DNA of 64,000 bases, taken from a plasmid. A model generated the notes under the pieces. It saw only the letters and a program-made list of their open reading frames with translations, was not told where the DNA came from and made no database searches. Shown one piece after another: positions 1-50,987 of the stretch. Location of the stretch: the sequence record NZ_CP011600.1, one strand, 5' to 3'. Every line of letters starts with the position of its first letter. Within the stretch, counting starts at the first letter, position 1. A program made the translations under genes and the position numbers.

Positions 1-564
1 GCCGAGAATACGCAACGTTCCGGCCCCCAGGGTGCGTTCCACGGCGATAAAGTCGCGGGCGCTAAGCGCGCTAGTTTCGGCGTAGATAACCCTGGCGATC
101 TGCACCCAGTTCACCATGGCGATCACCAGGGAGACGATCCAGACACTTGGCTGGAAAATCGCCGCCAGGGCAATCGCCAGCAGCAGTGCGGGAAACGCCA
201 TCATCAGATCGGTAAAGCGCATCAGCAGCCCTCCGATACGCCCCTGCAGATAACCTGCGCTAAGCCCTACCAGGACGCCGATCAGTACTGCAGTGCCGTT
301 GGCGACAACACCGATGAGTAACGAAGTACGAGCTCCGTAAATTAAACGCGAGAAGAGATCGCGTCCCAGCAGATCGGTTCCCAGCCAGTAAGTGCTGTTG
401 GGAGAAAGCGGTGCGCCTTCCAGGCTCAGTCCCTCGACAAACTGTTCATCGGGATCGAAGGGGGTGAGCCAGGGGGCAAACAGCGCGCTCATCACCACCA
501 GGAGAATAAACAGCAGCGAGAGCAGCAGGGCTGGCCGGCGCAGAAAATATCCGACTCTATTCAT
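1..564 (-). CDS. ABC transporter permease, DppC/OppC/NikC family (N-terminal part, runs off window start)
   Basis: Minus-strand ATG at 564 translates to MNRVGYFLRRPALLLSLLFILLVVMSALFAPWLTPFDPDEQF...LGTDLLGRDLFSRLIYGARTSL, a typical binding-protein-dependent inner-membrane permease N-terminus. It overlaps the upstream amiR stop by 4 nt (ATGA), giving an operon arrangement. Confidence 0.65.
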   Translation of the reverse strand, partial: MNRVGYFLRRPALLLSLLFILLVVMSALFAPWLTPFDPDEQFVEGLSLEGAPLSPNSTYWLGTDLLGRDLFSRLIYGARTSLLIGVVANGTAVLIGVLVGLSAGYLQGRIGGLLMRFTDLMMAFPALLLAIALAAIFQPSVWIVSLVIAMVNWVQIARVIYAETSALSARDFIAVERTLGAGTLRILG

Positions 565-1154
565 TGTGCTCCCCGCTTGCCGGACGACATTCGTAGCAGC
601 CACTTCTGCGCCACCTGTGCCACCGACTGGTTCGTACACATTGATTCCGAGCGCAGGCGAACCCATGCCTGTTGTTCATCAATACTTTCCGCTTGCATCT
701 GGGCCGCCAGAGCTTGGGTAATCTGCGGCATTGCTGCCAGACGCTGGCGCAGTAGCATCTGTTGCTGTTGAATGTCATGCAACTGCTGACGCAGCCCCAC
801 TGCCATCATCAGGGTGGTATAGATGGCTCGCTGTGTAATAGGCTTGGTAAGGAGCGCTGTTGCCCCTAACTCCAGCGCGCGCTGTACCTGGTAAAGTCCC
901 TCATGTGAGGTCAGCGCGATCACCGGTATTCCCGCCAGATTGATCTGGCTCAGGGTTAGCGGGCTGGCGAATGCCTCCAGTTCCACCAGTACTGCACAGG
1001 GGGTGAGAGGAGGTAAAGCCTCATCTCCGGTCAGGTGATGCCAGCGGATACCCATCCGCGTCAGGTTTTTTTCCAGCGCTTCGCGACTCCTTGCTTCACA
1101 GTCTACCAGCAGGAGCGGCTGAGCATCTAAATCCGGGGACAGCAGCGTTTTCAT
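561..1154 (-). CDS. amiR: ANTAR-domain response regulator / RNA-binding antiterminator (AmiR/NasT-like)
   Basis: 197-aa ORF with an N-terminal receiver-like region and a C-terminal ANTAR-like helical region, architecture as in P. aeruginosa AmiR. Translationally coupled to the upstream amiC-like gene (4-nt overlap). Confidence 0.7.
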   Translation of the reverse strand: MKTLLSPDLDAQPLLLVDCEARSREALEKNLTRMGIRWHHLTGDEALPPLTPCAVLVELEAFASPLTLSQINLAGIPVIALTSHEGLYQVQRALELGATALLTKPITQRAIYTTLMMAVGLRQQLHDIQQQQMLLRQRLAAMPQITQALAAQMQAESIDEQQAWVRLRSESMCTNQSVAQVAQKWLLRMSSGKRGAQ

Positions 1155-2278
1155 TTAACAATCCTCAGAGCAGGTCTGGCTGCAACCGTTCGGCTTTCAC
1201 GTAGCTCGGTCGCGGAGAGATAGGGATCGGGCATAACCGGCAGCGGTTCGCGATGCAGTATCTGAAAGCAAGTTTGTTGCAACTCAGCGATGTAGCAGGG
1301 CAAACAGGCGTGGTTGTTTCGAGCCATTACTGAGCGAGCGCCCGGAGAATCAACGTCGTGCTGACGATGCAGTGCCGCCAGCACCGCACCCGGCTCGCTG
1401 TTTCCGGCCTCGCGCAGGCTATTGGCAAACAGCCTTACTGCCCGCCAGCCGCCGATATAGTAGTGGGAGATGCGCTGTGCGCCATGTTGCAGGTGCTGCC
1501 GCGCACAAAAATCGAGATCGACGCTCTCAAAAAACGGTCCGCAGGAAAGCAAACGTACCGCCCTTAGTGGCGCGACTTCGGCGACTTCGGCTTCGGTAAA
1601 ATTACAGCTGAGCACCGCTAACGTCCGCCGATCGCGAAGACAGGCCTCGTCCAGTGCGCGCAGAAACGCATAAGAGGTTTCGCCTACCAGGTTATTGAGC
1701 ACAAAATCTACCTCTGTGCTGAGAATCGCCTCAATCAACTCGGTCACGTTGCTGTTTCTCAGGTGCAGATATTTTTCGCCCACCACCGTACCGCCGGAAC
1801 CTTCCACTACCTCACGGGCGATACGATTGCTTTCCCAGCCCCAGACGTAGTTAGAGCCGATCAGCCAGGAGCGATTTCCGAACATATCCAGCGCCAGCCG
1901 CAGGAGTGGCAGCAGAGTCTGGTTCGGACAACCGCCCAGATATACGACCTGCTCGCAGCTCTCGAACCCCTCGTAAGGACAGCCATACCACAGCAGCAGG
2001 TTATGCTGCTCCAGGTCCGGGATAATCTCCTTCCGACTGGCAGAGGTAATGGTTCCGAAGATATGGCGGATGCCGTGAGCGATAAAGGTGCTCACCGCTT
2101 CACTGTAGGCTGCGAGTTCACCCGCAGGGTTGATATGTCGGGCCCGCAGCTGAAAAGGATAAGCAGGATCGGCATTGATTTCCTCTAAGGCATGGCGCGC
2201 ACCAAGCAGTGTGCTGTTCGCCAGGTGGCTGTAGGTACCTTCTGTGGAAAGCAAAATTCCAATATCAATAGTTTGCAC
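1151..2278 (-). CDS. amiC: AmiC/NasS-like ligand-binding sensor (periplasmic-binding-protein fold, cytoplasmic regulator)
   Basis: 375 aa with motifs matching AmiC (YGCPYEGFE vs AmiC YPTPYEGFE; PDPY near C-terminus). GTG start at 2278. Gene order sensor then ANTAR regulator matches amiC-amiR and nasS-nasT. Confidence 0.7.
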   Translation of the reverse strand: MQTIDIGILLSTEGTYSHLANSTLLGARHALEEINADPAYPFQLRARHINPAGELAAYSEAVSTFIAHGIRHIFGTITSASRKEIIPDLEQHNLLLWYGCPYEGFESCEQVVYLGGCPNQTLLPLLRLALDMFGNRSWLIGSNYVWGWESNRIAREVVEGSGGTVVGEKYLHLRNSNVTELIEAILSTEVDFVLNNLVGETSYAFLRALDEACLRDRRTLAVLSCNFTEAEVAEVAPLRAVRLLSCGPFFESVDLDFCARQHLQHGAQRISHYYIGGWRAVRLFANSLREAGNSEPGAVLAALHRQHDVDSPGARSVMARNNHACLPCYIAELQQTCFQILHREPLPVMPDPYLSATELRESRTVAARPALRIVK

Positions 2279-2301
2279 GTATGTTTGCTCTCTGCATTAA
2301 T

Positions 2302-2345
2302 AAAAAAGCCTGATTGTCCTTATTAGGACAATCAGGCTTCATTAC
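2302..2345 (-). terminator. Perfect 15-bp-stem hairpin followed by a U-tract on the minus strand, ~20 nt upstream of the amiC start
   Basis: Plus strand reads aagcctgattgtcct-tatt-aggacaatcaggctt. On the minus strand the hairpin is followed by TTTTTTATT. Candidate leader terminator / antitermination target, or terminator of an upstream gene. Confidence 0.45.
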
Positions 2346-3939
2346 CTGTCGATATTTAATGGATTCAAGGCTTAAGGGTTGCCCCTGCTTGCATATACCC
2401 GACATGAAAAATTCATGCCATTTTTAAAGCACAGTTAAATCAATGGATTATTTATTTTTGGAGACACTTTTGCACCAATGGGATGCGGCTTGCTCAGTTA
2501 TGGTGCAATTTTCTGATGCAGTCTGGTCTCTTCAACATGAGGTGGAGTAATGCACACCTGTTTTAGTTCCACGCACTTTTTGAGAGTTCCGGTTTTTCAG
2601 CCATCAGCAGGTGATCCTCCGGCGTCAGGTTATTCAGGGATTCATGGGGACGCTCTGGATGGAAGATCCTCGTGACGAAGCCGAATTTGCCCCCGGCCAC
2701 GTGCTTTTTTTCGAGCGTAATGTTGTCCATGCATTACCAACCCTTCTTGAAGAACCCGTAATATTTCTGTCATTGGCCAGCCCTCGTCGTGATCCTGAAG
2801 ATATTACCTTTGTTGACCCGAAAGATGGCACTGCCAGAACCTTTATGGGGTCAGTTTGGATATAGAGAATTATTGTACGGTAAGCCTGTTTTTTGAACAG
2901 ACTTACCTATAGCAATAGGGTGTACTCCCGCGCTATACGGCATTTTCAGAGGTTTGACCTTAATCGGATAACCTAAATGCGATACTGCAAGAGCGACAAC
3001 TTAAAAGCGATAGCCACTGACGCAAAATCAACCCCTTACGAACCAAGATTGGTTAAATAATGCTCTTAACGTACAAAAATTTCCGATCTCCAAACTGACC
3101 CCGACTACGATGGTCAGGTTGCGGAGGCTATGGCCCTGGTACGAGCGCTGAACAAAATGACGAAAGCAGGTATGCCTGAAAGCGTGCGTATTGCCTGAAA
3201 ACACAACCCGCTACGGGGGAGACTTACCCGAAATCTGATTTATTCAACAAAGCCTGTGCCCGTGCTTACCGGGCGCGCATTCTGGATGTGGGTACAGGAG
3301 ACCTTGCTAAGGTCTTCCCGCGAACAAAGGAATGGCTATCAGGCACGTGCAGAGCGAAAGCACCCCGTTCGTGGATATCGGCAGCAGATGCAGGAAGACT
3401 ATGAGGCCTGGGTGCAAATGATGTCGCACCCCGAACATGAAGAATATACAAGTACTCCTGCCCCTGCAGAAATTGAAAATAAAGCCACAATCGCGTCAGC
3501 CCGGACATACAGTGCTGAGCCTATAGTAAACAACACTATGACAGCTATGCGGAATATGAAAATCCTTTTCTGCCGTGCATTGCTACGTTCTATTAAAAAC
3601 GGCAACCAGTGTCGACAAAAAATGAATTATTCTTGCCAGTATGTGCTTATTAATACATTTTCATTCGTTATGCTGCGCACCACTGCTTTCAGTTTATTAC
3701 TGTTTTTATATTTGCTCATAAAGATGTCGGGGAAAATTGCTCAGATTGCGACAAATACGGGCCATTTACTGTTATATGAAATAATGTCACATGCTCGTTT
3801 TGTACTGACCAGCGATACCTTTTTACACAATCTGTGGTTTTTGAGAGAGCAGGCAGTGCTCGCCGCAGCCGAACGACCGGGCGAAGCACGCGAGTGAGCG
3901 AGGAAGCACCAGGGAACGAAAGCCAGTGTGATCACCTGA

Positions 3940-4210
3940 CGCGCCCTGGTTATTACGAATATTTTCCAGGAGAACAACGACTTATCCACCGGATAGAGTA
4001 ATAACAAAGATCAAATGAAGATCAATGTGAGATCAAAAAGGAATAAGGATCGTCTCAGCCCTTTACTGGCAGGCTCTCCAGCCCTACTGGATACACTGTG
4101 AAGGGTAGCGTATCCATTGTACCGGGTAAGCGATACACTATACCGGGTACATAATCCACTATACCGGGTGGATATAATCCACTATAGCGGGTAGCATTCA
4201 GTAATATTCC
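3940..4210. promoter_or_regulatory. RepFIB-type origin (oriS-like): DnaA box TTATCCACC at ~3973-3981, GATC cluster at 4000-4050, and an array of ~22-bp iterons (motif CACTATACCGGGT) at ~4100-4205
   Basis: Direct repeats gtaccgggtaagcgatacactataccgggtacataatccactataccgggtggatataatccactatagcgggtagc lie immediately upstream of repA. An AT-rich stretch (3540-3800) and the DnaA box sit upstream of them. Organisation matches F oriS/incB. Confidence 0.7.
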
Positions 4211-4230
4211 ACAACTAACAGATAACCTGT

Positions 4231-5112
4231 ATGTCAAATAATAACAATGAGTTAGCTTTAGTTATCGAAGAAACCAGCAAGGATTCCGGGGAAGTTATTC
4301 ACCTGTTTCCAACATTACGGCAGACCATACAACCGAAAGTTTTGCTGCGTCTTGGTGTATTTGTCCCCACACTTAAATCCACTGAGAAGGGTGGGAGAAA
4401 GAGCCACAGCATTGACGCGACAGAATCTCTGTCACGGTTATCCATTATAGAGGGTGAAGGCTATAACCAGATCCAAATCTATGGGCCCCGTCTGGACATG
4501 GATACAGATTTTAAAGTCTGGGTAGGAATCATCTATGCGCTTTCAAACAAGAAACTTAACCACGATGGCCAGCTGGAGCTTAACTTCGCGGAGTTCGCGA
4601 AATTTTGTGGCATTGAGAGCAAGCGTATCGATCGACAACTCAAAGAACGCTTTGACGCGTCTTTAACCCGTATCTCCAGAACGAATATTCGTTTCATGAA
4701 GCAAATACCCGGTACAGACGATCACATCACTATAAACATGCATCTCGTTGAATGGACGTACTACGACAGCGCAGCCGGGACCATAATCATCAAACCGAAT
4801 TCTAAGCTGAATACACTGTACCGGGTGGATGGCAAAACCAGGCTGTACCTGAAGTCACTGCAGAAATTATCTCGCAAGGAGTCAGCCCAGGCGTTGTATC
4901 TGTATCTTGCAGAACTCCCGGCAACATTTTACCGGATTGGCTTCGGCCGCCTGCGTGAACGTCTCCAGCTTACCTCGCACATCGGTAACCAGAACGCGAT
5001 AGTCAAGAAGGCGCTCCAGCAACTTAAGGACATTGGATTTCTTGAATATTCCGTGGAAAAAGAAAATGGTGATTACGTTCTGAATATTCTCAGGCGTAAT
5101 CCCAAACTTTGA
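4231..5112 (+). CDS. repA: Iteron-type replication initiator RepA/RepE (RepFIB-like)
   Basis: 293 aa, MSNNNNELALVIEE..., in the RepE/RepA (F RepE, P1 RepA) family. Flanked upstream by iterons and downstream by further iteron copies (5107-5150, cacccggtacagtggacatccactatgccgggtatc), like F incC. Confidence 0.85.
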   Translation: MSNNNNELALVIEETSKDSGEVIHLFPTLRQTIQPKVLLRLGVFVPTLKSTEKGGRKSHSIDATESLSRLSIIEGEGYNQIQIYGPRLDMDTDFKVWVGIIYALSNKKLNHDGQLELNFAEFAKFCGIESKRIDRQLKERFDASLTRISRTNIRFMKQIPGTDDHITINMHLVEWTYYDSAAGTIIIKPNSKLNTLYRVDGKTRLYLKSLQKLSRKESAQALYLYLAELPATFYRIGFGRLRERLQLTSHIGNQNAIVKKALQQLKDIGFLEYSVEKENGDYVLNILRRNPKL

Positions 5113-5183
5113 ATCACCCGGTACAGTGGACATCCACTATGCCGGGTATCAGCAACACGTCTCACTCACCTTGGGGGAATGAA

Positions 5184-5438
5184 TCAGTTGTTTCTTTCAA
5201 GAACTTCAAATTCATAGTCTTTTGCAGCATCCACAATTTTTGCAAGACACTGGCGTTCCTGACCATCACGACCGTCAAGGCCTTCACCGCCGGGTCGGTT
5301 AAACTTCACGAATTTGTACACTTCTTCGACCAGCAGCATTGTTATCTGTGCTCTCGCGTATTCACTGTCGTTCTCAGGGTCGTTAAGAGCTGCAGTCAGT
5401 GCAGCCTGTAGTTGCGCCACATTTTTCATTTGGATCAC
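5184..5438 (-). CDS. Small conserved hypothetical protein adjacent to repFIB
   Basis: 84-aa ORF directly downstream of repA on the opposite strand. No recognisable domain. Confidence 0.35.
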   Translation of the reverse strand: MIQMKNVAQLQAALTAALNDPENDSEYARAQITMLLVEEVYKFVKFNRPGGEGLDGRDGQERQCLAKIVDAAKDYEFEVLERNN

Positions 5439-5949
5439 CTGTGCAGATAAGTTGATGTAAGTACAGATTAAAAGTCTGTGGTTTCATCCTGTTACTGAAA
5501 GACTATCCTGTCAACAGTCCGGATGGCAGACAGGAGCGCGAGCTGTGCGTAGCGCGACCCTGAATGTGCCGCAGGCACATGCCGGCGGAAATCATGCTGA
5601 ATGCGGCACTGATCTGGAATCCGCCGGAGGACCCGGCGAAGCCGGCTTCATGATAGATGATCGCTATTAACCCCTCCGCCCTGCAAAGCCATAATCCGCT
5701 TAAAGCGACTCTGGTGCCCCTGTACGCGGTCGGAGTGGTCACGTCGAGGCTTTGCCGAAGACGGGGCGTATCTCCGCGTTAGCGGCCCGTAGGGGCGCTT
5801 ACGAGCGTGTTCATCAGGACTTATAGCGAAGAGACTTACAGCAACGCCAATCGTTAGTTACATCATCCATCTTAAAAGCGATGTTGTTCCGGGCCTCCGG
5901 CCCGGGGCGGCGGCGCTTTTCAGGGTGGGAAAGGCAGAGGAGTTTCAGA

Positions 5950-6446
5950 TTTGCACTTTCTGTTGCTCTCACAAATAGACGTATGTTGTAACTAAATACG
6001 GATTTATGCCCGTCGCATGGCGACGGGAGGTACCTGTCTTTTTCCGAACCGCGCGAGCGTTAGCTCGCTGCAGGGGCGGGCATTATCTGAGCCTGTCCAC
6101 AGGGCAGGCGACGAACAGGTTATGTATTTAAATGAGAAAGAATAAAGATATTTAAAAGAAGTACAGAGCAGGGGTTTAAAAGGAACCACGCACCCTGAAA
6201 CGATATCGTCTGGCACCCTGTAACGATTACGGTTGTCGCTTAATGGAAAGTTCCCTTGCAGTTATATGTCAACAAATGAAAATCGAAGACGAAAATCACA
6301 CCGGCCGTTATTTTTCCGGCCATTCTGCCGCGTTCCCGAATGCGGCACAGAAGAAATCCTGCACTACGTTGTTCATATAGTGAGCGGAGCCGTGCTACAG
6401 GCGTGCGAAATCCTCCGGAGCGAACCGGATATTAAAAAAAAGGGGG
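5950..6446. promoter_or_regulatory. IncFII oriR region downstream of repA1
   Basis: Location immediately 3' of repA1 (minus strand), as in R100/R1 where oriR lies downstream of repA1. GC-rich then AT-rich segments. No exact motif verified. Confidence 0.35.
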
Positions 6447-8009: not shown

Positions 8010-8543
8010 TCAGTACGAGGGATGCCAGTCGGCACCGGCATCCCAGCGGGACTGCCAGTGCGCCAGGTAAGTCTGTGCCAGAGACGGCATATCCCGTACA
8101 ACCAGTGCATTCTCGGAATTGGTGTTAGCGGCGCTGCGTGTGTAGTTAAACGACCCCAGCTCCACGTTCTGCCCGTCGGTGATGATCACTTTGTCGTGCA
8201 TAATTTTGTACTGTCCGTTGGTCCGTAGCGGAATGCCGGCACTGGCCACGACGTTCATCGCGGCCTGGCTGGCTTTGCCGAGGTTACCTTTTTCGTCCAC
8301 CACGACCCGGACGTCCACGCCCCGGCGTTTCGCGGCAACGAGTGATTTCACAACGTCCGGAGATGTGAAGCTGTAGCCCATCAGGCGGATACTGTCGTGC
8401 GCGTCGTCCAGCGTCCGGATGACCAATTGCTCTGCACTCCCCTCGGGTGAAAAACCAACATCGACAGAGGGGGTGGCCAGAGCAACACCGGTTGATGTCA
8501 TCAGCCACATGACCGTGGCGACGCCTGCTATTCTGAATCTCAT
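8010..8543 (-). CDS. nuc: Phospholipase-D-family periplasmic endonuclease (Nuc-like)
   Basis: HKD motif context IMHDKVIITDG. N-terminal signal peptide MRFRIAGVATVMWLMTSTGVALA. Start at 8543 preceded by AAGGAAGAG SD. The longer ORF to 8618 is a spurious upstream extension. Confidence 0.75.
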   Translation of the reverse strand: MRFRIAGVATVMWLMTSTGVALATPSVDVGFSPEGSAEQLVIRTLDDAHDSIRLMGYSFTSPDVVKSLVAAKRRGVDVRVVVDEKGNLGKASQAAMNVVASAGIPLRTNGQYKIMHDKVIITDGQNVELGSFNYTRSAANTNSENALVVRDMPSLAQTYLAHWQSRWDAGADWHPSY

Positions 8544-23446: not shown

Positions 23447-26401
23447 CTACCAGCCGACAGCGAGGCCACCGGCCACGCCTACCGCCTGGCTGGAATCCCA
23501 TGTCAGGCTGACGCGCGCATTAACCCTCGGGCTTAACTGCCGCTGAATGCCACCGGCAATGGCCGTTTCACCCCGGTATGATCCGATGGCCATCCCGAAA
23601 CTGTTGTCGACGTCTTTAGTCAGATAGGGAATATTTGTCAGTGCCATCACGCCGGCGATACCGGCATTGGCGCGACGTTCATTACGGTTAACCCGGTCAT
23701 TGAGTTTGCTGAAGCGCTGGTTGGTATAGTTGCCGGCGCTGGCAAGCGTGTTCGCATCACCTGCAATGCGGGCGTCATGCTCACTGGCTACCAGGCTGTC
23801 TGTCCGGGAGTTGATGGCTGTTTCCCGCTGGTCTGTATACGCTTTTGCGCTGCCCAGCGTCTGCCGGTCCCCCTCGATACGGGCCAGTTGTTCTGTATCC
23901 ATCATTTTGTCTGTTCGTTTGTTTATCGCCGTTTCACGGGTGTCGGTGTAACTCCGGGCACCGCTGAGCGTCCGGGCATCACCACTTTCCCGGGCCTGCT
24001 GCTCGCTGGCTATCAGGCCGTCGGTCCGCTGGTTAATGACCGTTTCCCGCGTATCGGTATAGCTTTTCGCACTGTTCAGCGTGGCGGCATCCCCGTTCTG
24101 GCGCGCCTGCTGCTCGGCGGCCATCAGGCCATCCGTCCGCTGGTTGATGGCCGTTTCCCGGGTGTCGGTATAGCTTTTTGCACTGCCCAGCGTTGCTGCG
24201 TCACCTGCGTCACGGGCCTGCCGCTCGGTGGCCATCAGGCCGTCCGTCCGCTGGTTGATGGCCGTTTCCCGGGTGTCGGTATAGCTTTTTGCACTGCCCA
24301 GCGTTGCTGCGTCACCTGCGTCACGGGCCTGCTGCTCGGCGGCCATCATGCCGTCTGTCCGCTGGTTGATGGCCGTTTCCCGGTTGTCTGTGTAACTTTT
24401 TGCACTGTTCAGGGTGGCGGCGTCTCCGTTCTGGCGCGCCAGTTGCTCTGTGGCCATCAGAGTGTCAGTGCGCTGGTTGATCGCAGACTCACGGGTGTCG
24501 GTGTAGGTATTGGCTGCCGAGAGTGTTTCCGCATCACCGGCAATACGCTGCGATTTTTCGTCCGCAACCAGTCCATCAGTCCGGGCATTGATCGCCTGTT
24601 CCCGGGCGTCGGTATAGCTGTTTGCGGTACTGATTGCGACGGCAGTCTGCTGGTCATTGTAATTACCTGATTTTGCGAGGTTGTCAGCATCGCCGGTTAT
24701 CCGATCACTTTTCTCCTGGGCCAGCAGAGTATCAACGCGGCTGTTAATGACCTGTTCGCGTGCATCGGTATATCCCTTTGCACTGTTCAGCGTGGCAGCA
24801 TCGCCGGCCTGGCGTGCCTGTAACTCGGTAGTGAGGAGACTGTCAGTCCGGGTGTTGATCGCTTCCTCACGAATATCGGTGTAGCCCGTCGCGCTGTTCA
24901 GCGTGCTCACGCTGCTGCTCTGACGTGCCTGTTGCTCTGTGGCCAGCAGAGTATCAGTCCTCTGGTTGATAGCCGTTTCACGTGTGTCGGTGTAGCTCGT
25001 CGCGCTGTTCAGCGTGGCCGTATTTCCGCTCTGGCGCGCCTGCTGTTCGGTGGCCATCAGGCTGTCAGTCCGCTGGTTTATCGCAGCCTCGCGGGTATCA
25101 GTGTAGCTGTTCGCACTGTTCAGCGTGGCCGTATTTCCGTTCTGGCGTGCCTGTTGCTCGGTGGCCATCAGGCTGTCCGTCCGCTGGTTAATCGCAGCTT
25201 CGCGGGTGTCGGTGTAGCTGTTCGCACTGTTCAGCGTGGCCGTATTTCCGCTCTGGCGTGCCTGCTGTTCAGTGGCCATCAGGCCGTCAGTCCGGGTATT
25301 GATGGCGGTTTCACGGGTGTCGGTGTAGCTGTTCGCTGTGCTCAGTGCAACGGTGGCCGCATCGTGCAGCTGCTTCACATTCACGGCATCGGTGTCTGCC
25401 GTTCCGGTAGCGACATTCGTTAACTGGCGCTCATTGCCGGTGCTGCCAAATGACACGCTGCCTGCCCGGCTTCCAACAGAGTTATACCCAATTGCAACCG
25501 CGCCATTGCTGGCGTTTGCGTTCTGCCCGATAGCAATAGAATTGGCATCTTTTACTGTGGTTGTCGTACCAATACCAATGGCATCATCGGCATAGCTCAT
25601 CTGGCTGCCAAAGCCGATAAGAATACCGCCACTGTCATGTTCGCCGCCGGTGATGGTGTTGTTATTGCCGAGGATAGCGGAGTTGCTGCCGGCACTGACC
25701 GTATTGCTGTTTCCGGTAATACTGGTGCCGTCAGCGCTGGAGCTGAAACTGGTCGCTGAAAGGTCTTTAACCGTATTATTCGAGCCAAAAATATTGCTGC
25801 TTGTTGCCTCAACAACCGTATTGCCGTTACCGATGGCATTGATACCGTCAGACTGAACACTGCTGCTGTAGCCGAATATGTTATTGTAATTACCCGAAGA
25901 GGTAATATAGGACCCGGTCAGGTTGGTTGAAATGCCGGTGGTTCTGAGTTCATTGCCCAGCGTAATATTATTTGTCCCGGTCGCATTAATCGTAAAACCA
26001 AACGCGCCATTCCCCGATCCATCAATCGTTATCCCTGAACCAAACGCATTTATGTTCCCGTTTTTTGTATTATTATTGTTGCCAAAAACATTCGCATATG
26101 TATTAGCCAGTTGGTTATTCTGCCCCATCACATTCACGTCGCCACTGTTTACGACGTTGGCCGAACCCATAATTTCTGAGCAACTGAGATTATTGACGGT
26201 GTTGTAACTGCCGTAAATATCTGAGACGGAGTCAGGAGAAGTACAGCCATAACTGGCCCAGGGGCCTGAAAAAGTCGAGACGTTTCCGTCACCGAAAAAT
26301 GTCAGTCGCGTCTGTGACGGATCTTTAGTATTGGCCGCATGAGCAGAAAAGCAGATCACACCGACAACAATCAGTGCTATTTTGCTGAACGTAGTTTTCA
26401 T
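23447..26401 (-). CDS. Trimeric autotransporter adhesin (YadA-like: signal peptide, beta-roll head repeats, neck, long repetitive coiled-coil stalk, C-terminal YadA membrane anchor)
   Basis: 984 aa. Signal peptide MKTTFSKIALIVVGVICFSAHA. Head with NS.AIG-type repeats. Neck ERQLTNVATGTADTDAVNVKQLHD. ~20 tandem 26-aa stalk repeats (ANSYTDTREAAINQRTDSLMATEQQARQ.G..ATLNS). C-terminal anchor ...AIGSYRGETAIAGGIQRQLSPRVNARVSLTWDSSQAVGVAGGLAVGW ending in W. Confidence 0.85.
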   Translation of the reverse strand: MKTTFSKIALIVVGVICFSAHAANTKDPSQTRLTFFGDGNVSTFSGPWASYGCTSPDSVSDIYGSYNTVNNLSCSEIMGSANVVNSGDVNVMGQNNQLANTYANVFGNNNNTKNGNINAFGSGITIDGSGNGAFGFTINATGTNNITLGNELRTTGISTNLTGSYITSSGNYNNIFGYSSSVQSDGINAIGNGNTVVEATSSNIFGSNNTVKDLSATSFSSSADGTSITGNSNTVSAGSNSAILGNNNTITGGEHDSGGILIGFGSQMSYADDAIGIGTTTTVKDANSIAIGQNANASNGAVAIGYNSVGSRAGSVSFGSTGNERQLTNVATGTADTDAVNVKQLHDAATVALSTANSYTDTRETAINTRTDGLMATEQQARQSGNTATLNSANSYTDTREAAINQRTDSLMATEQQARQNGNTATLNSANSYTDTREAAINQRTDSLMATEQQARQSGNTATLNSATSYTDTRETAINQRTDTLLATEQQARQSSSVSTLNSATGYTDIREEAINTRTDSLLTTELQARQAGDAATLNSAKGYTDAREQVINSRVDTLLAQEKSDRITGDADNLAKSGNYNDQQTAVAISTANSYTDAREQAINARTDGLVADEKSQRIAGDAETLSAANTYTDTRESAINQRTDTLMATEQLARQNGDAATLNSAKSYTDNRETAINQRTDGMMAAEQQARDAGDAATLGSAKSYTDTRETAINQRTDGLMATERQARDAGDAATLGSAKSYTDTRETAINQRTDGLMAAEQQARQNGDAATLNSAKSYTDTRETVINQRTDGLIASEQQARESGDARTLSGARSYTDTRETAINKRTDKMMDTEQLARIEGDRQTLGSAKAYTDQRETAINSRTDSLVASEHDARIAGDANTLASAGNYTNQRFSKLNDRVNRNERRANAGIAGVMALTNIPYLTKDVDNSFGMAIGSYRGETAIAGGIQRQLSPRVNARVSLTWDSSQAVGVAGGLAVGW
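23760..25370. repeat. Tandem 78-bp coding repeats (~20 copies) within the adhesin stalk
   Basis: Visible nucleotide periodicity (e.g. ccgtccgctggttgatggccgtttcccgggtgtcggtatagctttttgcactgcccagcgttgctgcgtcacc recurring). This explains the cluster of overlapping artefactual plus-strand ORFs. Confidence 0.8.
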
Positions 26402-43758: not shown

Positions 43759-44032
43759 CCTGTCCTCCCCGGCGCTGAGAGCACGGACCAGTCAGACCGT
43801 CAGCTAACACGCGTGTTTTTCCCATGCCGCAGCGGCCACAGATAACAACGTTGCTGTCAGCAGACTCACTGGCTGTGAGGTCTGCCCGGGACCGGTGATG
43901 ATGGTACAGCGCCTGTGCTGAGGCTTCGGTGACCAGAATGTGTGAAGACAATAACGCCCTTCTGCCCGTATCGGTTCCGGTACGTGATGGAACAGATACT
44001 GTTGTTCCCATACTGAGAATGCGCTTTTTCAT
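43748..44032 (-). CDS. Small ORF in the traR position (DksA/TraR-family candidate)
   Basis: 94-aa ORF between traV and traC. Contains CGRCG...C but not a clean C4 finger. Identification by position only. Confidence 0.3.
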   Translation of the reverse strand: MKKRILSMGTTVSVPSRTGTDTGRRALLSSHILVTEASAQALYHHHRSRADLTASESADSNVVICGRCGMGKTRVLADGLTGPCSQRRGGQDAQ

Positions 44033-44586
44033 TATTCCCCCTCATGGATAACCCGGAAATCATCGTTCCAGCGTGATTTTTGTTTCACAAACTCCACAAC
44101 AGCGGGCTGATGGAAACTGTCCTGCTCATCCACCCAGGGGGCTATCCAGAGCCGTTGTGTGGTATCCGGGATACGCATGGCCTCGACCTGCCCCGGCCCG
44201 CTGTACCCGGAAGGGGTGATGCTGCCGTCGGGTATGGCTACCGGCCGTATCGGGGCGGTGGAGGTGGAGGTGTGAAGCCTGCCGGTATTCACTGCCTGTC
44301 CGGCAACGGGACGCGGCGCAAGGGTTGCCACACTGACGGGACGAGCGGGGTTAATGGCAGGCTTCACATTGCCGGGCGTCGCCAGTGCCTCAGCCGCAGG
44401 CTTTGGGTTGCTGCCCTTCGCCGTATTCAGATCGTCCAGACTCTGGTGTTTTGAGGCCAGATGGCTGGCGTCAGACATCGACAGGCACTGGTCGGTGGCG
44501 GTTTTGTTGCAGTCGAAATCAGAATTCATACCGGCGCAGCCGGTTAAAGCGCCGCACAGCAGTGCGGCACCCAGTAATTTGTACAT
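44032..44586 (-). CDS. traV: Outer-membrane lipoprotein TraV
   Basis: 184 aa. Lipobox LTGC in MYKLLGAALLCGALTGCAGMNSDFDCN. Conserved TraV Cys pattern and P-rich linker. Confidence 0.85.
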   Translation of the reverse strand: MYKLLGAALLCGALTGCAGMNSDFDCNKTATDQCLSMSDASHLASKHQSLDDLNTAKGSNPKPAAEALATPGNVKPAINPARPVSVATLAPRPVAGQAVNTGRLHTSTSTAPIRPVAIPDGSITPSGYSGPGQVEAMRIPDTTQRLWIAPWVDEQDSFHQPAVVEFVKQKSRWNDDFRVIHEGE

Positions 44587-44693: not shown

Positions 44694-45173
44694 TCACCGG
44701 TGGCATTGTTCACGACCCGCCTCCCCGGTGGGCTCCGGAGCGTTGTCCAGAAAGCGCAACGGTCTTTTATCTGACGGAGACACGGTTCCACATTCTCTTT
44801 CATACCAGCATTCAAGATCCTGCAGTTCAAGGTGTCCCTTTTGTCGTGCGGTCTCCTGCAAATCATGCCAGGCCATCATGTTACGGGGCTGATACGCAGA
44901 CAGTCTGAAATCCAGCGTGTGACTCCATGTTTTCAAGGCAGTGGCTGGCAAATTCCAGGCGATAAGCCCTGACCCGAAAACGAAAAGCGACAAAAACAGA
45001 GCCGCGTTAACCGGGTGCACAGGTAACTTCATGGCAGTCCAGAAACCCATTGCAGCGAGCGTAATCAGGATAATCCAGAACCGCCTGATGCCGGGTGGGG
45101 AACCGCCTGCACGCCACTGTCTGATATCACTGCTTATCTGGCCCAGCGTTTGAGCGTTAGTCTTTTTTTTCAC
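44694..45173 (-). CDS. Membrane protein in the traP/trbD position
   Basis: 159 aa with 2-3 TM segments. Position between traB and traV. Confidence 0.35.
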   Translation of the reverse strand: MKKKTNAQTLGQISSDIRQWRAGGSPPGIRRFWIILITLAAMGFWTAMKLPVHPVNAALFLSLFVFGSGLIAWNLPATALKTWSHTLDFRLSAYQPRNMMAWHDLQETARQKGHLELQDLECWYERECGTVSPSDKRPLRFLDNAPEPTGEAGREQCHR

Positions 45174-45207: not shown

Positions 45208-45723
45208 TCATGCTGCAGCCTCTCTCGCGACAATATGAAAGCGCATGCTGCTGTTTACCGGGACGCGCACCTGCTGATTCATCAGGTTCAGGAGGAGCAT
45301 GGCCCGCTTCATGCCGTCCGGTTCATACCACACGGCTTCGATACCTTCGAATGCACCATCACGGAGCATCACCCGGTCCCCGTGCTGTGGGGCGACTGTC
45401 TCCGGTGGCGCACTGCTCCAGCCCTGGCTGAGTTGTGTAATCACGCTGTCCGGTACCACGGAAGGCAGGCCACCGAAGCTGATGAGCGTCGAGATACCAC
45501 GCGTGGCTTTGATGGCCGTGGTGTGCACCACCTCCGGGTCAAAACGCACAAATATGTAGTTCGGGAACATCGGCTGCGGCGTTACCCCCCTGACCCTGCC
45601 ATTGTGCAGGCGGACCTCGGAGAGCATCGGCAGCAGGCACGTCACCCCCTGACTCTGCAGCTGTTGTTGCGCCCGCTTTTCCTGGGCGAACTTCGTCTGT
45701 GCCACATACCAGTTTTCCATCAC
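45208..45723 (-). CDS. RfaH-like NusG paralog (ActX-type plasmid transcription antiterminator)
   Basis: 171 aa. Aligns along its full length with E. coli RfaH (MENWYVAQTKF.QE.RAQQ.L..QGV.CLLPM...V......R..V..P.FPNY.FV.FDPEV.HTT.I.ATRG.S....FGG.P..VP..VI.QLS.......GD.V...GAFEG..A...EPDG..R.MLLLNL.N). Confidence 0.8.
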   Translation of the reverse strand: MMENWYVAQTKFAQEKRAQQQLQSQGVTCLLPMLSEVRLHNGRVRGVTPQPMFPNYIFVRFDPEVVHTTAIKATRGISTLISFGGLPSVVPDSVITQLSQGWSSAPPETVAPQHGDRVMLRDGAFEGIEAVWYEPDGMKRAMLLLNLMNQQVRVPVNSSMRFHIVAREAAA

Positions 45724-45731
45724 GTCCCCTG

Positions 45732-47135
45732 TCAGTTAATGGTGTCACCGAGACGAAGCTGGCTTGCCTGCCGCAACACTTCATCCGGATTCAGCACCGG
45801 TGCGTTGTTGCTGTTGCTGGCATTCGTCGCCGGGGTGGCCGCCGCGGTCTGCTGGGAGGCCGTCTGTGCACCGGTTTTCTTCTCTTTTTCTTCTTCCGCA
45901 TCCTCAATGGTTTCCAGGCGGAAGCCCTGCTGGAAGACCACCGTCACGGCATTACCAGCCCCGATATCAATCACCGGGTGATACTGCTCAGCACGTTTAA
46001 TCCAGTACTGGCTCAGTGTGTCAGCCGCCTTACTGGCCCCGCCGCCAAATCCCTGCTTGAGGATGTCGCCGGCACCGACGGAGGCAGAACCACCCAGCCC
46101 GACAGTCGGCGTGGCTGCAGACTTAATACCCTCGCCGAAGCCTGATAACAGCCCGGCCGCACCGGCGTTGGCGATGATGGCACCGTTACGCATCACCGGC
46201 TTGCCACGGATACCCTGTTTGCCCTGGAAGGAAACGTGCCCGTCAAACGCCATATCGATGTGCTTGCCATTTTTCAGGATGCAGCTGATGTTTTTTGTGC
46301 GGACTTCGCCGCGTTCGCTCGAGATATCGCCGTACATTTCCCCGGTCACGCGGCACTGGTCCATGTTGTACGTTTTGCCGTTGGGCATCGAGACATCACC
46401 GAGCAGGGTGATAACCACGGGTGAGGTATTTTGCTGACCGGTCACACTGGCATTGGCGTCTGCCCCTTCAATCAGCACTGCCTCAGAGAATGACCCTGAC
46501 GGTATCCAGGGGAGTTTTGTCTTTTTCGCGGAGAGTGAGGCGTAGGTGAATGTGTCCCGTTTCAGTCCTCCGGTACGCATCGTACCGGTGCCGGGATAAA
46601 AGCCCTGCCCCTGCCCCTGACCCTGCGGATAAAAATGACTGCCCTGCCCCGCAGCGGGTGCGCCGGACTGAGGCGTGACACTCCACTGTGCCGGACCGGA
46701 GGGGCCACCAGGAACCGGTCCGTTAGCGGGAGCACCGGGCGGAACAGCCGTACCCTGCCCCGGCCCGGTGGGGGTTTTACCGCCCTCTGTCTGCTGCTTC
46801 TGCAACTGACTCAACACTTCTCCCATTTTAGCCAGCTGGTTTCTCAGGTCATCGTTCTGGGTTTTCAGGGTGGCGGCCAGCGTGTTCATGTCTTTCTCCA
46901 GCCCGGCCGTCTTGTTCTGCTGTTGCTGCAGCGCCGATGTGGCCACTCCTTCGGTAAAGGAGGTATTCACCAGGCTCCCTGTCAGGTTCGGGGCCGCTTT
47001 GGGTGCAGGACGGTTAAGTTCTGCCTGATGATGTGACCAGGCCCAGATACCGCCGCCCGTCGCGAGCATGACCGCTGCGGAGATACCGGCAATCATCCAC
47101 TGACGGCGGCGCGTGGCGGTATTGATGTTACTCAT
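45732..47135 (-). CDS. traB: VirB10-like TraB
   Basis: 467 aa. N-terminal TM, coiled-coil, Pro/Gly-rich linker and conserved C-terminal domain like F TraB (475 aa). Confidence 0.9.
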   Translation of the reverse strand: MSNINTATRRRQWMIAGISAAVMLATGGGIWAWSHHQAELNRPAPKAAPNLTGSLVNTSFTEGVATSALQQQQNKTAGLEKDMNTLAATLKTQNDDLRNQLAKMGEVLSQLQKQQTEGGKTPTGPGQGTAVPPGAPANGPVPGGPSGPAQWSVTPQSGAPAAGQGSHFYPQGQGQGQGFYPGTGTMRTGGLKRDTFTYASLSAKKTKLPWIPSGSFSEAVLIEGADANASVTGQQNTSPVVITLLGDVSMPNGKTYNMDQCRVTGEMYGDISSERGEVRTKNISCILKNGKHIDMAFDGHVSFQGKQGIRGKPVMRNGAIIANAGAAGLLSGFGEGIKSAATPTVGLGGSASVGAGDILKQGFGGGASKAADTLSQYWIKRAEQYHPVIDIGAGNAVTVVFQQGFRLETIEDAEEEKEKKTGAQTASQQTAAATPATNASNSNNAPVLNPDEVLRQASQLRLGDTIN

Positions 47136-48830: not shown

Positions 48831-49223
48831 TTAGCCAGCGAGGGCGAAGAAGCTGCGGGTGATAACAATCAGGAATGCCAGGCCACCAACAAACAGCATC
48901 GGGTTACGGGTTTTCATATATGCGGCAGCGGAAATGAGGACCTCAGCAATATACAGACCCCACTCCACCGTACTCCCGTGCCCGAAGGTATCCTTCGCAT
49001 CCTGTTTCTGACCGGAGAGCAGGTCTTCCGCGTGTCCCAGATGGGGCAGCGCGATGAAAACCACCGCCAGACACAACAGCAACAGATTAATGCGATGGCG
49101 ATAAATCAGACTGAAGGCACCACGCAGCATGCCGATAAACAACGATGACGCACCAGTCCGGACTTCCGGGCAGGCTTCCGCAGCCCCCTCCGCCAGCGCC
49201 GGTTGAGTTAAGACGACTTTCAT
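48831..49223 (-). CDS. traA: Propilin TraA
   Basis: 130 aa. Long leader peptide ending ...LPHLGHA followed by the mature pilin with a TM hairpin. First gene of the tra operon here. Confidence 0.75.
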   Translation of the reverse strand: MKVVLTQPALAEGAAEACPEVRTGASSLFIGMLRGAFSLIYRHRINLLLLCLAVVFIALPHLGHAEDLLSGQKQDAKDTFGHGSTVEWGLYIAEVLISAAAYMKTRNPMLFVGGLAFLIVITRSFFALAG

Positions 49224-49433
49224 GTCAGTTAGCCTCGATTTAAGTTAAGGAAATGTCATTGCGCGTAAACAGACGTAACGCGCGGTAAGTGTACATTTTC
49301 TCAAAAAAAAAAAATCTGTGACGCAAATCACGTTATTAGTGATTGTGATGCGATTTTTTAAGATTAATCCTGCAGCGGGGTGGAGTAGGCTTGCTGCCTG
49401 AACAGGGGATACCTCGTGAGGAGGTTTTTTTGT
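49224..49433. promoter_or_regulatory. Divergent promoter/operator region between traA and the tandem-RHH gene
   Basis: 210-bp interval containing an A12 tract and the palindromes AATCAC-n7-GTGATT and gtgac...gtcac (49333-49365). Strong SD GAGGAGG 9 nt before the plus-strand ATG. Confidence 0.5.
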
Positions 49434-50054
49434 ATGAAAGTAAAAGAAAAAATGGGTGACGGTCGTGGCAGGCCGCGAAAATATGCCAGAGGAGAAATGC
49501 AGTACCGGAAATTATGGTTACCGGAAAATTTACTGATGGAGCTGCGAGTGGCAGCAAGGGTCAGAAATTTCACCACCAATGATGAAATCATCAGCCGTCT
49601 TATTGCTTCGTTAAACTTTTCGCCGCGCCGGCATATTATCAAAACGGATGAAGGACAACGTCTTGTAGCGCTTGCACGGTTATTTGATGAGTTTCTTCAG
49701 GCAAGACTCGATGTGATTCGCAAAAAATATCAGGCAGAGAAAATCAGTGACAACGGTAAAAAAACATTTGTCCCGGGAAAGAACCGCGCATTCAGCAGCA
49801 GTTTCCCGGAGAATTTACGCCGGGATATGGAAGTCAGCGCCCGGTTTAACCGGCGAAGTATGAACAGGGAAATCATGGAGCGGCTTCTGGATTCACTGAA
49901 TTATTTAACCGAACAGCAGTTACCCGAAAATGAGGAAGTCTGGCGACTGCGTGAACTGGCAATACTGTTTGATGAGTTTATTTCAGGGAAAGTGGTAAAA
50001 GCAGAAAATCCGCTCACGAAGGAAGTGGCAGGTGAAGAGAAAAAAGAAGAGTGA
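49434..50054 (+). CDS. Tandem ribbon-helix-helix DNA-binding protein (TraY-like, two RHH repeats), divergent from traA
   Basis: 206 aa from an SD-preceded ATG. Two internally repeated modules each with a RHH signature (KLWLPENLLMELRVAARVRNFTTNDEIISRLIASL and SSSFPENLRRDMEVSARFNRRSMNREIMERLLDSL) followed by L..LA.LFDEF helices. Confidence 0.6.
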   Translation: MKVKEKMGDGRGRPRKYARGEMQYRKLWLPENLLMELRVAARVRNFTTNDEIISRLIASLNFSPRRHIIKTDEGQRLVALARLFDEFLQARLDVIRKKYQAEKISDNGKKTFVPGKNRAFSSSFPENLRRDMEVSARFNRRSMNREIMERLLDSLNYLTEQQLPENEEVWRLRELAILFDEFISGKVVKAENPLTKEVAGEEKKEE

Positions 50055-50597: not shown

Positions 50598-50987
50598 TTA
50601 TTCTTCCTGAATAAAGTGTTTACTTTCTGCCTTATCTTCCGCATCGGACATCCCGGTAAGATTCAGGTCCATAAGCGCTTCCAGTTTATCCTGAGTGTTC
50701 TCTCCCCTGATTTGCAGATACATTTCTGTCATCATGGCCATCATGATACTCGTACCTTCACGCGTACCGGCCACCCTGCGTATTAAGTCACGATTGAATC
50801 CTTCCATATCGAATTTATTCCCTTCGCTCTGATGCTTTTTGACCATCAGGCCAATGCCGACCAGTTCATTCACCACGGACGAGAAGTTAACCTCGCCATG
50901 CGTGGCGCCGTTCTGCATTTCAATCTGGACCAGCTCCAGCACTTCCCGCTCGGTCTTTTCCTTGAAGTAGATGTTTCTTCGGCCCAT
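50598..50987 (-). CDS. traM: TraM relaxosome accessory protein
   Basis: 129 aa. Similar in size, position (adjacent to oriT) and architecture to F TraM (N-terminal RHH-like DNA-binding region, C-terminal tetramerisation domain ending in an acidic tail). Confidence 0.7.
   Translation of the reverse strand: MGRRNIYFKEKTEREVLELVQIEMQNGATHGEVNFSSVVNELVGIGLMVKKHQSEGNKFDMEGFNRDLIRRVAGTREGTSIMMAMMTEMYLQIRGENTQDKLEALMDLNLTGMSDAEDKAESKHFIQEE

Follow-up and report, generated by a model that had tools for sequence, protein, structure and literature searches.

An RfaH-family gene inside a plasmid tra operon

We analysed a 64,000-nt stretch of plasmid DNA (sequence record NZ_CP011600.1; hereafter the window, numbered from its first letter) in which a gene for an RfaH-family paralog of NusG lies on the minus strand as the sixth gene of an F-type conjugative transfer (tra) operon. 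The gene order on that strand is traM, traA, traL, traE, traK, traB, rfaH, an open reading frame (ORF) of 159 amino acids, traV and traC, and the presumed transcription unit runs on beyond traI. We find that a variant of the ops element, the DNA site at which chromosomal RfaH loads, is conserved inside traA of this and related plasmids, and that the single variable base of its core changes together with residues of the RfaH pocket. The features on which the argument rests are as follows.

45208-45723, minus strand: coding sequence of the rfaH-family NusG paralog (ORF list with Pfam and NCBIfam profiles)
45732-47135, minus strand: traB
44694-45173, minus strand: ORF of 159 amino acids directly 3' of rfaH, with no Pfam or NCBIfam match
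44032-44586, minus strand: traV
48831-49223, minus strand: traA, the first tra gene, encoding propilin, with the ops-like element in its leader-peptide codons
50598-50987, minus strand: traM
8010-49281, minus strand: presumed target transcription unit (traA-L-E-K-B-rfaH-orf159-traV-traC...traT-YadA-like-traD-traI-dsbA-PLD), ~36 kb once a transposon is excluded

Judged by its sequence, the gene is a genuine and selected member of the RfaH family. Its product exceeds the cut-offs of both RfaH equivalog models of NCBIfam over residues 2-158 (NF006534, 168 bits against a cut-off of 124; TIGR01955, 156.6 bits against 144.5) and matches the Pfam NusG/NGN domain PF02357 with 75.7 bits, while the NCBIfam models for NusG (29 bits; cut-off 135.7), UpxY (74.5 bits; 100) and LoaP (36 bits; 125) all stay below theirs. 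A phmmer comparison with the E. coli RfaH structures (2OUG/8PEN) aligns the protein over its full length with 45% identity (E about 1e-43, best 7e-44), and the FPNY and MLLLNL motifs are common to both. The full-length alignment with RfaH, across the NGN and KOW domains, that had been described in the original prediction from this DNA is thereby borne out. The label "ActX-like" given to the gene at the same time is loose, as this 45% identity to chromosomal RfaH compares with ~27-31% identity, in the N-terminal domain, to proteins of the IncX ActX/PrfaH type. Pairwise ratios of nonsynonymous to synonymous substitution (dN/dS) between the plasmid rfaH and ten relatives are 0.07-0.16, and hence the gene is under purifying selection. 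The ORF encodes 171 amino acids if the GTG at 45723 is used. The likely start is the ATG at 45720, giving 170 amino acids, because an AGGGGA Shine-Dalgarno sequence lies 4 nt upstream of it and because it is the start chosen by the Prokaryotic Genome Annotation Pipeline (PGAP) in near-identical plasmid records, where the homologous gene is already annotated as RfaH.

The gene sits in the slot between traB and traV that had been assigned to it, with the 159-amino-acid ORF between rfaH and traV. This traB-rfaH-traV slot recurs in more than 30 loci from Pantoea, Erwinia, Rahnella, Ewingella, Cedecea, the Brenneria group, Phytobacter and Providencia. In all relatives rfaH lies between traB and traV, and we find no stand-alone chromosomal arrangement with unlinked targets among them. 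In many relatives the ORF after rfaH overlaps the rfaH stop codon by 4 nt, an arrangement that suggests translational coupling of the two genes.

In the crystal structure of E. coli RfaH bound to ops, H20, R23, Q24 and R73 make up a pocket that receives the flipped-out base T6, and direct contact with the DNA is made by just four side chains, those of K10, H20, R23 and R73 (PMC5995543). The contacts through which these four residues read G5 and T6 were described as invariant (PMC5995543). In E. coli numbering, the plasmid protein keeps K10, R16, Q24, T72, R73 and G74 and carries H20->Q, R23->S and T68->A, so the canonical ops-contact set K10/H20/R23/R73, with Q24, is only partly present, H20 and R23 being lost.

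An ops-like element in traA

Using an alignment of the upstream and 5' coding regions of traA from plasmids with rfaH in the same slot, we identified one conserved ops-like element on the strand that would be exposed to RfaH.

49171-49182, minus strand (non-template, sense strand): ops-like element 5'-TGCGGAAGCCTG-3', by conservation across relatives

The aligned loci came from Pantoea, Erwinia, Rahnella, Ewingella, Cedecea, the Brenneria group, Phytobacter, metagenomes and Logan assemblies; a scan of genome contigs yielded 6 loci, and a scan of metagenomes returned mostly distant NusG paralogs and replicates of known types. Read from 49182 to 49171, the element covers nucleotides +42 to +53 of traA (codons 14-18, with T11 at 49172), ~100 nt downstream of the predicted start site and outside the 210-bp leader. 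Compared with the ops sequence GGCGGTAGnnTG, 8 of the 10 specified positions are equal, the differences being at G1 (T here) and T6 (A here). It retains the C3:G8 hairpin pair, G4, G5, A7, G8 and the T11-G12 pause dinucleotide, and it is present in a single copy in the whole window.

A canonical ops site with at most one mismatch to GGCGGTAGnnTG is absent in and near tra, in agreement with the earlier observation that the traA leader holds no exact ops, and the same scan of the whole window returned only two unrelated matches, which is below chance expectation. The recruitment site had been left as unknown in the original prediction. The search for ops-like motifs in the leader and the early tra ORFs that was recommended there leads to this variant in traA codons 14-18, a candidate site outside the leader that had been searched. 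Three other positions were considered and rejected. The look-alike GCGGTAAGTGT on the plus strand, noticed earlier, does exist (49282-49292), but this strand is the template strand for tra, the match overlaps the predicted -10 and start region, and it is not conserved among relatives. The spacer between traV and traC, the counterpart of the ops position in the F plasmid, is without an ops-like element. A sense-strand GGCGGTAG core in traI has no TG pause dinucleotide, and chance alone would yield one such 8-mer; the core reads GGCGGTAGTGGC at about 19134-19145 (minus strand), 2 kb into traI.

The element is conserved beyond what its coding role would need. Its octamer from G2 to C9 (GCGGnAGC) is the same in 31 of 31 loci except at position 6 and is located at +42/+45 of traA. 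Clade B plasmids carry GGCGGTAGCATTG, which holds a perfect 8-nt ops core, the group of Rahnella, Ewingella and Erwinia persicina carries nGCGGTAGCTTTG, and the window and its closest relatives carry TGCGGAAGCCTG. The third codon positions that fall on ops G4 and A7 are invariant in all 17 non-redundant loci, those on G1 and n10 are variable, and of 233 four-fold degenerate sites at which traL, traE, traK, traB and rfaH from these loci encode an invariant amino acid, only 2 (0.9%) are themselves invariant. In E. coli, recruitment of RfaH is abolished by the ops substitutions G4C, G5A, A7T and G8C (PMC5995543). The same 15-mer, GGCGGTAGCTTTGCC, is found as non-coding sequence in F-type plasmids of Providencia, in the spacer between traY and traA (locus L022, 2249-2263), and in Ewingella the element is kept although a frameshift broke the reading frame upstream of it. 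Given the invariant synonymous sites, the non-coding Providencia copy and the Ewingella copy beyond a broken frame, the conservation acts at the nucleotide level. In the Ewingella plasmid (locus L006, about 3482-3530) a 1-nt deletion creates a stop in the usual 5' frame of traA, and the annotated traA starts downstream of the element; traC is unannotated there, and this plasmid may be decaying.

These data also bear on whether the plasmid gene is a redundant spare of the host RfaH, with canonical specificity, that is useful in hosts with little or no RfaH of their own and acts on host and plasmid ops sites alike. A host-range advantage of this kind was suggested by Wang et al. 2020 (PMC7593976), the protein passes the RfaH equivalog models, and in relatives from clade B and Providencia a near-canonical pocket is indeed found with a canonical GGCGGTAG core. 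In the clade of the window, however, H20Q and R23S exchange two of the four residues whose side chains are in direct contact with ops, the tra operon and its surroundings lack a canonical site, and the sole sense-strand GGCGGTAG core is the traI copy without the pause dinucleotide. We consider a mere spare very unlikely.

Base 6 varies together with the RfaH pocket

We next compared the identity of base 6 with the pocket residues of the RfaH protein encoded in the same operon. A6 occurs with Q20 in 12 of 12 loci, T6 occurs with H20 (14 loci) or N20 (2 loci) in 16 of 16, and G6 occurs with H20 together with E23 or D23 in all three distinct proteins of this type. When base 6 was predicted from the protein alignment alone, before the DNA had been seen, the prediction was correct in 5 of 5 cases. 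In a neighbour-joining tree of RfaH proteins built with columns 19-23 masked, T6/H20 is ancestral (E. coli, Providencia, clade B and the Rahnella group), and the tree holds one switch from T to A, one or two from A to G and one from A back to T, at least 3-4 switches in all; a tree of TraK/TraB is mosaic and was left out of the counting. The A-to-G and A-to-T switches fall in a subclade whose members are 84-92% identical, and within this subclade no columns of the protein vary more than residues 23 and 22, and residue 20 also switches. The combination of Gln with adenine, and of His with the keto bases T and G, would be a chemically plausible pairing.

The original prediction had named the conserved residues for binding ops as a point on which it could fail, and the analysis of these residues gave a divided answer: H20 and R23 are indeed changed (to Q and S), but the DNA element is changed to match. 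The pocket positions 20 and 23 and base 6 of ops are both non-canonical, in a correlated manner that points to a retuned specificity, and the matched changes indicate retargeting of the protein, as read from the aligned loci, and not a loss of function. In several plasmid paralogs of the T6 type (the Rahnella group and clade B), Q or L takes the place of K10, a residue that contacts G5 in E. coli RfaH. Since G5 is invariant despite this replacement, its read-out in those paralogs must differ from the E. coli model.

Could the traA element be conserved for reasons unrelated to RfaH, such as the coding of the leader peptide, mRNA structure or another factor, with the association between base 6 and residue 20 reflecting ancestry or linkage and the paralog being recruited elsewhere or without a DNA signal? 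The element is coding and each base-6 variant changes one TraA amino acid (V/E/G), the A6 loci form one clade, and the tra backbones are mosaic, so that blocks can move jointly. Such an account has to meet the two invariant synonymous sites against a background of 0.9%, the pattern of constrained and free third positions that mirrors the ops consensus, a copy that is non-coding in Providencia and another that is out of frame in Ewingella, and the perfect 8-nt core in clade B. It must also meet the facts that base 6 is the sole variable position while pocket residues 22 and 23 are the most variable in the 84-92% subclade, and that all five base-6 predictions were correct. We regard conservation for unrelated reasons as unlikely.

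A further step would be to see in these loci a natural series of switched RfaH/ops pairs, in which residue 20, aided by residue 23, sets base 6 (H or N for T, Q for A, H with D or E at 23 for G) and in which the pairing has been switched repeatedly under diversifying selection, each lineage thereby possessing a private, self-activating switch insulated from the RfaH and the ops sites of its host. We put this series forward only tentatively, at somewhat less than an even chance.

A model for elongation control of the tra operon

Based on the alignments, we propose that the operon-resident RfaH paralog is a processive antiterminator of its own ~36-kb tra operon, which it would join at the ops variant in traA; we place the probability of this model at about 0.7. 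In the proposed sequence of events, transcription would begin at a promoter of the CRP type near 49281, and ~100 nt further on RNA polymerase would meet TGCGGAAGCCTG in traA codons 14-18, where the plasmid RfaH would bind the exposed non-template hairpin. The flipped-out base 6, A in place of T, would be read by a remodelled pocket with Q20/S23 in place of H20/R23. RfaH would then ride with the polymerase, excluding NusG and suppressing pausing and Rho/H-NS-dependent termination, and would probably couple translation to transcription, as is the case for E. coli RfaH. Since rfaH, sixth in the operon, lies 3.5 kb beyond the site at which its product would load, its expression would be self-reinforcing through positive feedback, and owing to the match of A6 with Q20, protein and site would form a pair set apart, at least in part, from the host RfaH and host ops sites. 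The idea of a resident antiterminator for the tra operon is an already published hypothesis, as Wang et al. 2020 described plasmid-resident NusG paralogs in tra operons and proposed them as antiterminators of these operons (PMC7593976), and for PrfaH/ActX of IncX plasmids such a role was demonstrated in 2025. What is new is the ops variant inside traA and its covariation with the pocket, of which we found no account in the literature searched.

Several observations weigh against the model. An ops site in a translated region is unusual, the F site and the reported E. coli target sites being in leaders or intergenic regions. The covariation comes from related sequences and a handful of independent events; N20 also pairs with T6, so that residue 20 does not act as a strict code, and the A6 loci differ at residue 23 (S, G, Q or E). 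For E. coli RfaH, few ops substitutions are as harmful in vivo as T6A (PMC5995543), but in vitro it reduced recruitment only about 3-fold (PMC5995543). The host RfaH may for that reason still act at the plasmid site, and orthogonality would perhaps be partial. Two co-resident plasmids of Pantoea At-9b share the A6/Q20 type, which makes insulation between plasmids less likely as the driver of switching. In the window traI is split, and given this split the plasmid copy may be transfer-defective and selection for transfer may have ended.

The predicted structure raises a further point of this kind, and with it the question of whether the protein is a general NusG-like elongation factor, without autoinhibition or sequence-specific loading, that raises the processivity of plasmid transcription. 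An AlphaFold2 (AF2) model from a 31-sequence alignment, with a predicted local distance difference test score (pLDDT) of 75.7, is closest to recruited RfaH in the ops-paused complexes 8PHK and 6C6S; a single-sequence model reached a pLDDT of 31. The dependence of RfaH on ops is due to autoinhibition by an alpha-helical KOW domain, and in the AF2 model the C-terminal KOW domain is a beta-barrel only, with no alpha-hairpin state, at a pLDDT of about 65-80. AF2 returns one state only, however, here from a shallow alignment, and the best-matching profile is that of RfaH, the NusG model reaching 29 bits against its cut-off of 135.7. A general factor would moreover not account for the ops-like element or for the way it varies together with the pocket, and we hold this alternative to be extremely unlikely.

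Predicted promoter, leader and initiation control

Upstream of traA, conservation among relatives marks out a probable promoter and leader, and a divergent gene fills most of the gap to traM.

49288-49293, minus strand: predicted -10 hexamer TACACT, by conservation (TAnnnT invariant in relatives)
about 49281, minus strand: predicted tra start site, from conservation
49303-49314: T12 run at the place of the -35 box (T12-13 in relatives)
49317-49332: CRP-type palindrome CGTGATTTGCGTCACA, with its centre ~43 bp before the predicted start
49263-49281, minus strand: near-invariant 19-nt block GCGTTACGTCTGTTTACGC, predicted +1 to +19
49251-49258, minus strand: second conserved leader block TGACATTT, only in plasmids with the divergent gene
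49416-50054, plus strand: divergent gene for an Arc-family ribbon-helix-helix (RHH) protein (PGAP start 49434)

The palindrome is a perfect TGTGA-N6-TCACA in five aligned relatives, the T run follows it and the distance to the TAnnnT box is fixed, and the arrangement suggests a class II-like, CRP-dependent tra promoter. This promoter is placed by conservation alone, as a scan for consensus promoters did not call it, and the CRP-like match does not reach significance when only the window is considered, its support being conservation across plasmids. A GAGG Shine-Dalgarno sequence in the traA leader is common to the clade with the RHH gene. The Arc-family protein is internally duplicated: an RHH-like repeat occurs twice, and a similar helix comes after each copy. 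All clade A plasmids have its gene; those of clade B and of Providencia lack it and instead carry genes for TraY and a response regulator or for LuxR and TraY. The RHH protein is a likely regulator of initiation at the tra promoter.

The block GCGTTACGTCTGTTTACGC, which contains the direct repeat GTTAC/GTTTAC, was also considered as the site that recruits the RfaH paralog in place of the traA element. No other non-coding part of the leader is as well conserved, and the block, which is located on the non-template strand directly after the predicted start, could form small hairpins. It is, however, absent from clade B and Providencia plasmids, where rfaH follows traB as well, co-occurs strictly with the divergent RHH gene, and is the same in T6/H20 and A6/Q20 plasmids, unchanged across RfaH pocket types. 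Substitutions in Erwinia persicina disrupt its possible stems without compensation, and it is without an ops core. As a loading site for RfaH the block is highly improbable and was rejected, for its occurrence follows that of the RHH gene, and neither rfaH nor the pocket type; an operator for the RHH protein is the more likely role.

These features also qualify the view, taken in the original prediction, that antitermination replaces the TraJ/FinOP circuit. Antitermination by the resident RfaH appears to be the best reading of the locus, but the opposition of the two is a false alternative, since control of elongation does not replace control of initiation and this clade has its own apparatus for the latter (the RHH gene, the CRP-type palindrome and the 19-nt block). 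F-type plasmids of Providencia combine rfaH, in the slot it has here, with traY and a LuxR/TraJ-like gene. Among the F proteins TraJ, TraY, TraX, TraP, TrbD, TraR, TraQ and TraS, none has a tblastn match in the window, which upholds the reported absence of traJ and traY between traM (50598-50987) and traA (48831-49223), an interval with no gene on the same strand. Beyond traI, the dsbA-like and PLD/Nuc genes are present as had been stated and traX gives no tblastn match; for finO the claim stands at the level of annotation, as FinO is absent from the record annotations consulted, which leave positions 1-6000 of the window uncovered, and was not searched by sequence. Two features had been overlooked: the divergent RHH gene in the traM-traA gap and a transposon that splits traI.

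The distal operon and its relatives

The distal tra region, mapped using AP025335 together with direct Pfam scans, is 100% identical to Phytobacter plasmids save for a 4,989-bp insertion of a Tn3-family element.

10921-15909: Tn3-family insertion of 4,989 bp, interrupting traI
10954-11559: resolvase of the Tn3-family element
11654-14077: Tn3-type transposase, interrupted by an IS110-family element
14142-15146: IS110-family transposase gene
15875-20245 and 9529-10920: the two halves of traI, the first of 1456 amino acids
8655-9455: DsbA/ScsC-like gene, after traI
8010-8510: PLD/Nuc gene, after traI
23447-26401, minus strand: gene for a YadA-like trimeric autotransporter adhesin of 984 amino acids

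In relatives traI is an intact gene of 5,721 nt. An IncFII repA also lies beyond traI, after the DsbA/ScsC-like and PLD/Nuc genes. In the 5' tra region, identity is 99.9% with pENT-812c (CP026189.1) and 98.6% with plasmids of Phytobacter diazotrophicus. The YadA-like gene is in the tra orientation between traT and traD, where pENT-812c carries different genes. It could be a long cargo, co-transcribed with the antiterminated operon and a possible beneficiary of it.

The tra backbones are mosaic. For example, TraK/TraB of Pantoea agglomerans ZJU23 and of NBBC-01 cluster closely in the tree, whereas the two plasmids differ in the identity of their RfaH to that of the window (45% versus 77%), in base 6 of ops (T6 versus A6) and in their upstream regulators. 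This pattern implies recombination that left the 5' end of traA and rfaH matched.

Comparison with known systems

Chromosomal RfaH and its ops sites in Enterobacteriaceae (E. coli RfaH; PDB 2OUG, 5OND, 8PHK) are the closest counterpart. The plasmid protein belongs to the same curated HMM (hidden Markov model) family with 45% identity over both domains, and its element keeps G2-C3-G4-G5, A7-G8-C9 and T11-G12 and stands early in a long, horizontally mobile operon. In contrast to the stand-alone E. coli gene with its unlinked targets, the plasmid gene lies inside its own target operon, its pocket has Q20/S23, and its element has A6 (G6 in relatives), T for G1 and a place in coding sequence.

A second counterpart is ActX/PrfaH of IncX plasmids (R6K, IncX3; PDB 9IK0), likewise a plasmid-borne NusG/RfaH paralog, whose gene shares a transcript with the type IV secretion genes that it activates. 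IncX PrfaH/ActX binds an ops-like non-template hairpin in its own 5' untranslated region and is essential for conjugation (PMC11880322). The autoregulatory logic is similar, the IncX hairpin lying upstream of its own gene, but there the gene is the first of a VirB-type operon and the 18-nt site in its 5' untranslated region is of another sequence, whereas the plasmid rfaH studied here is the sixth gene of an F-type operon, and a near-canonical ops precedes it by 3.5 kb. The two proteins are distant: 9IK0 ranks 25 in a Foldseek search and matches the plasmid RfaH in the N-terminal domain only (27% identity, E=2e-8), and identity to NusG-family genes on plasmids of 43-54 kb, assigned to IncX from their size and annotation, is ~27-31% over residues ~4-100.

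The F plasmid has the same gene order and, with an operon of more than 30 kb, likewise needs elongation to be controlled. Its tra operon depends on the host RfaH (sfrB). F has no RfaH of its own and uses TraJ plus host RfaH, with a perfect ops, GGCGGTAGCGTG, between traV and traR (locus L023, 9323-9334), 5 kb into the operon; it also has traJ, traY, finP/finO and traX, in contrast to the window, where the Tra proteins were sought by tblastn and FinO by annotation only. The placement of ops thus varies in F-type plasmids, from the traV-traR interval in F to the traY-traA spacer in Providencia, which has a near-canonical RfaH of its own, and to the inside of traA in the Erwiniaceae type. Finally, LoaP, UpxY and TaA resemble the plasmid RfaH as dedicated paralogs encoded beside or within the long operon that they antiterminate, UpxY having many locus-specific variants. 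They belong to other NusG subfamilies, however, and use leader RNA or DNA signals of another kind in Firmicutes, Bacteroides and Myxobacteria.

Implications

RfaH is the best-studied transcription factor that is recruited by a non-template DNA hairpin. If the proposed relationship is true, a flipped base and its protein pocket that change together would provide a direct evolutionary test of the model for ops read-out and a simple code for protein recognition of single-stranded DNA. Given that two essential bases of the site are synonymous positions of traA codons, the model can be tested cleanly. The plasmid pairs would be candidate orthogonal antiterminator/site pairs for the engineering of long operons, in effect ready-made orthogonal elongation switches. 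For the plasmids themselves, the locus would show the takeover of the elongation switch for transfer genes, decoupled from the regulon of the host, and it would locate a control point for conjugation in a plasmid group that is widespread in Erwiniaceae and Enterobacteriaceae, with some members in clinical Phytobacter isolates.

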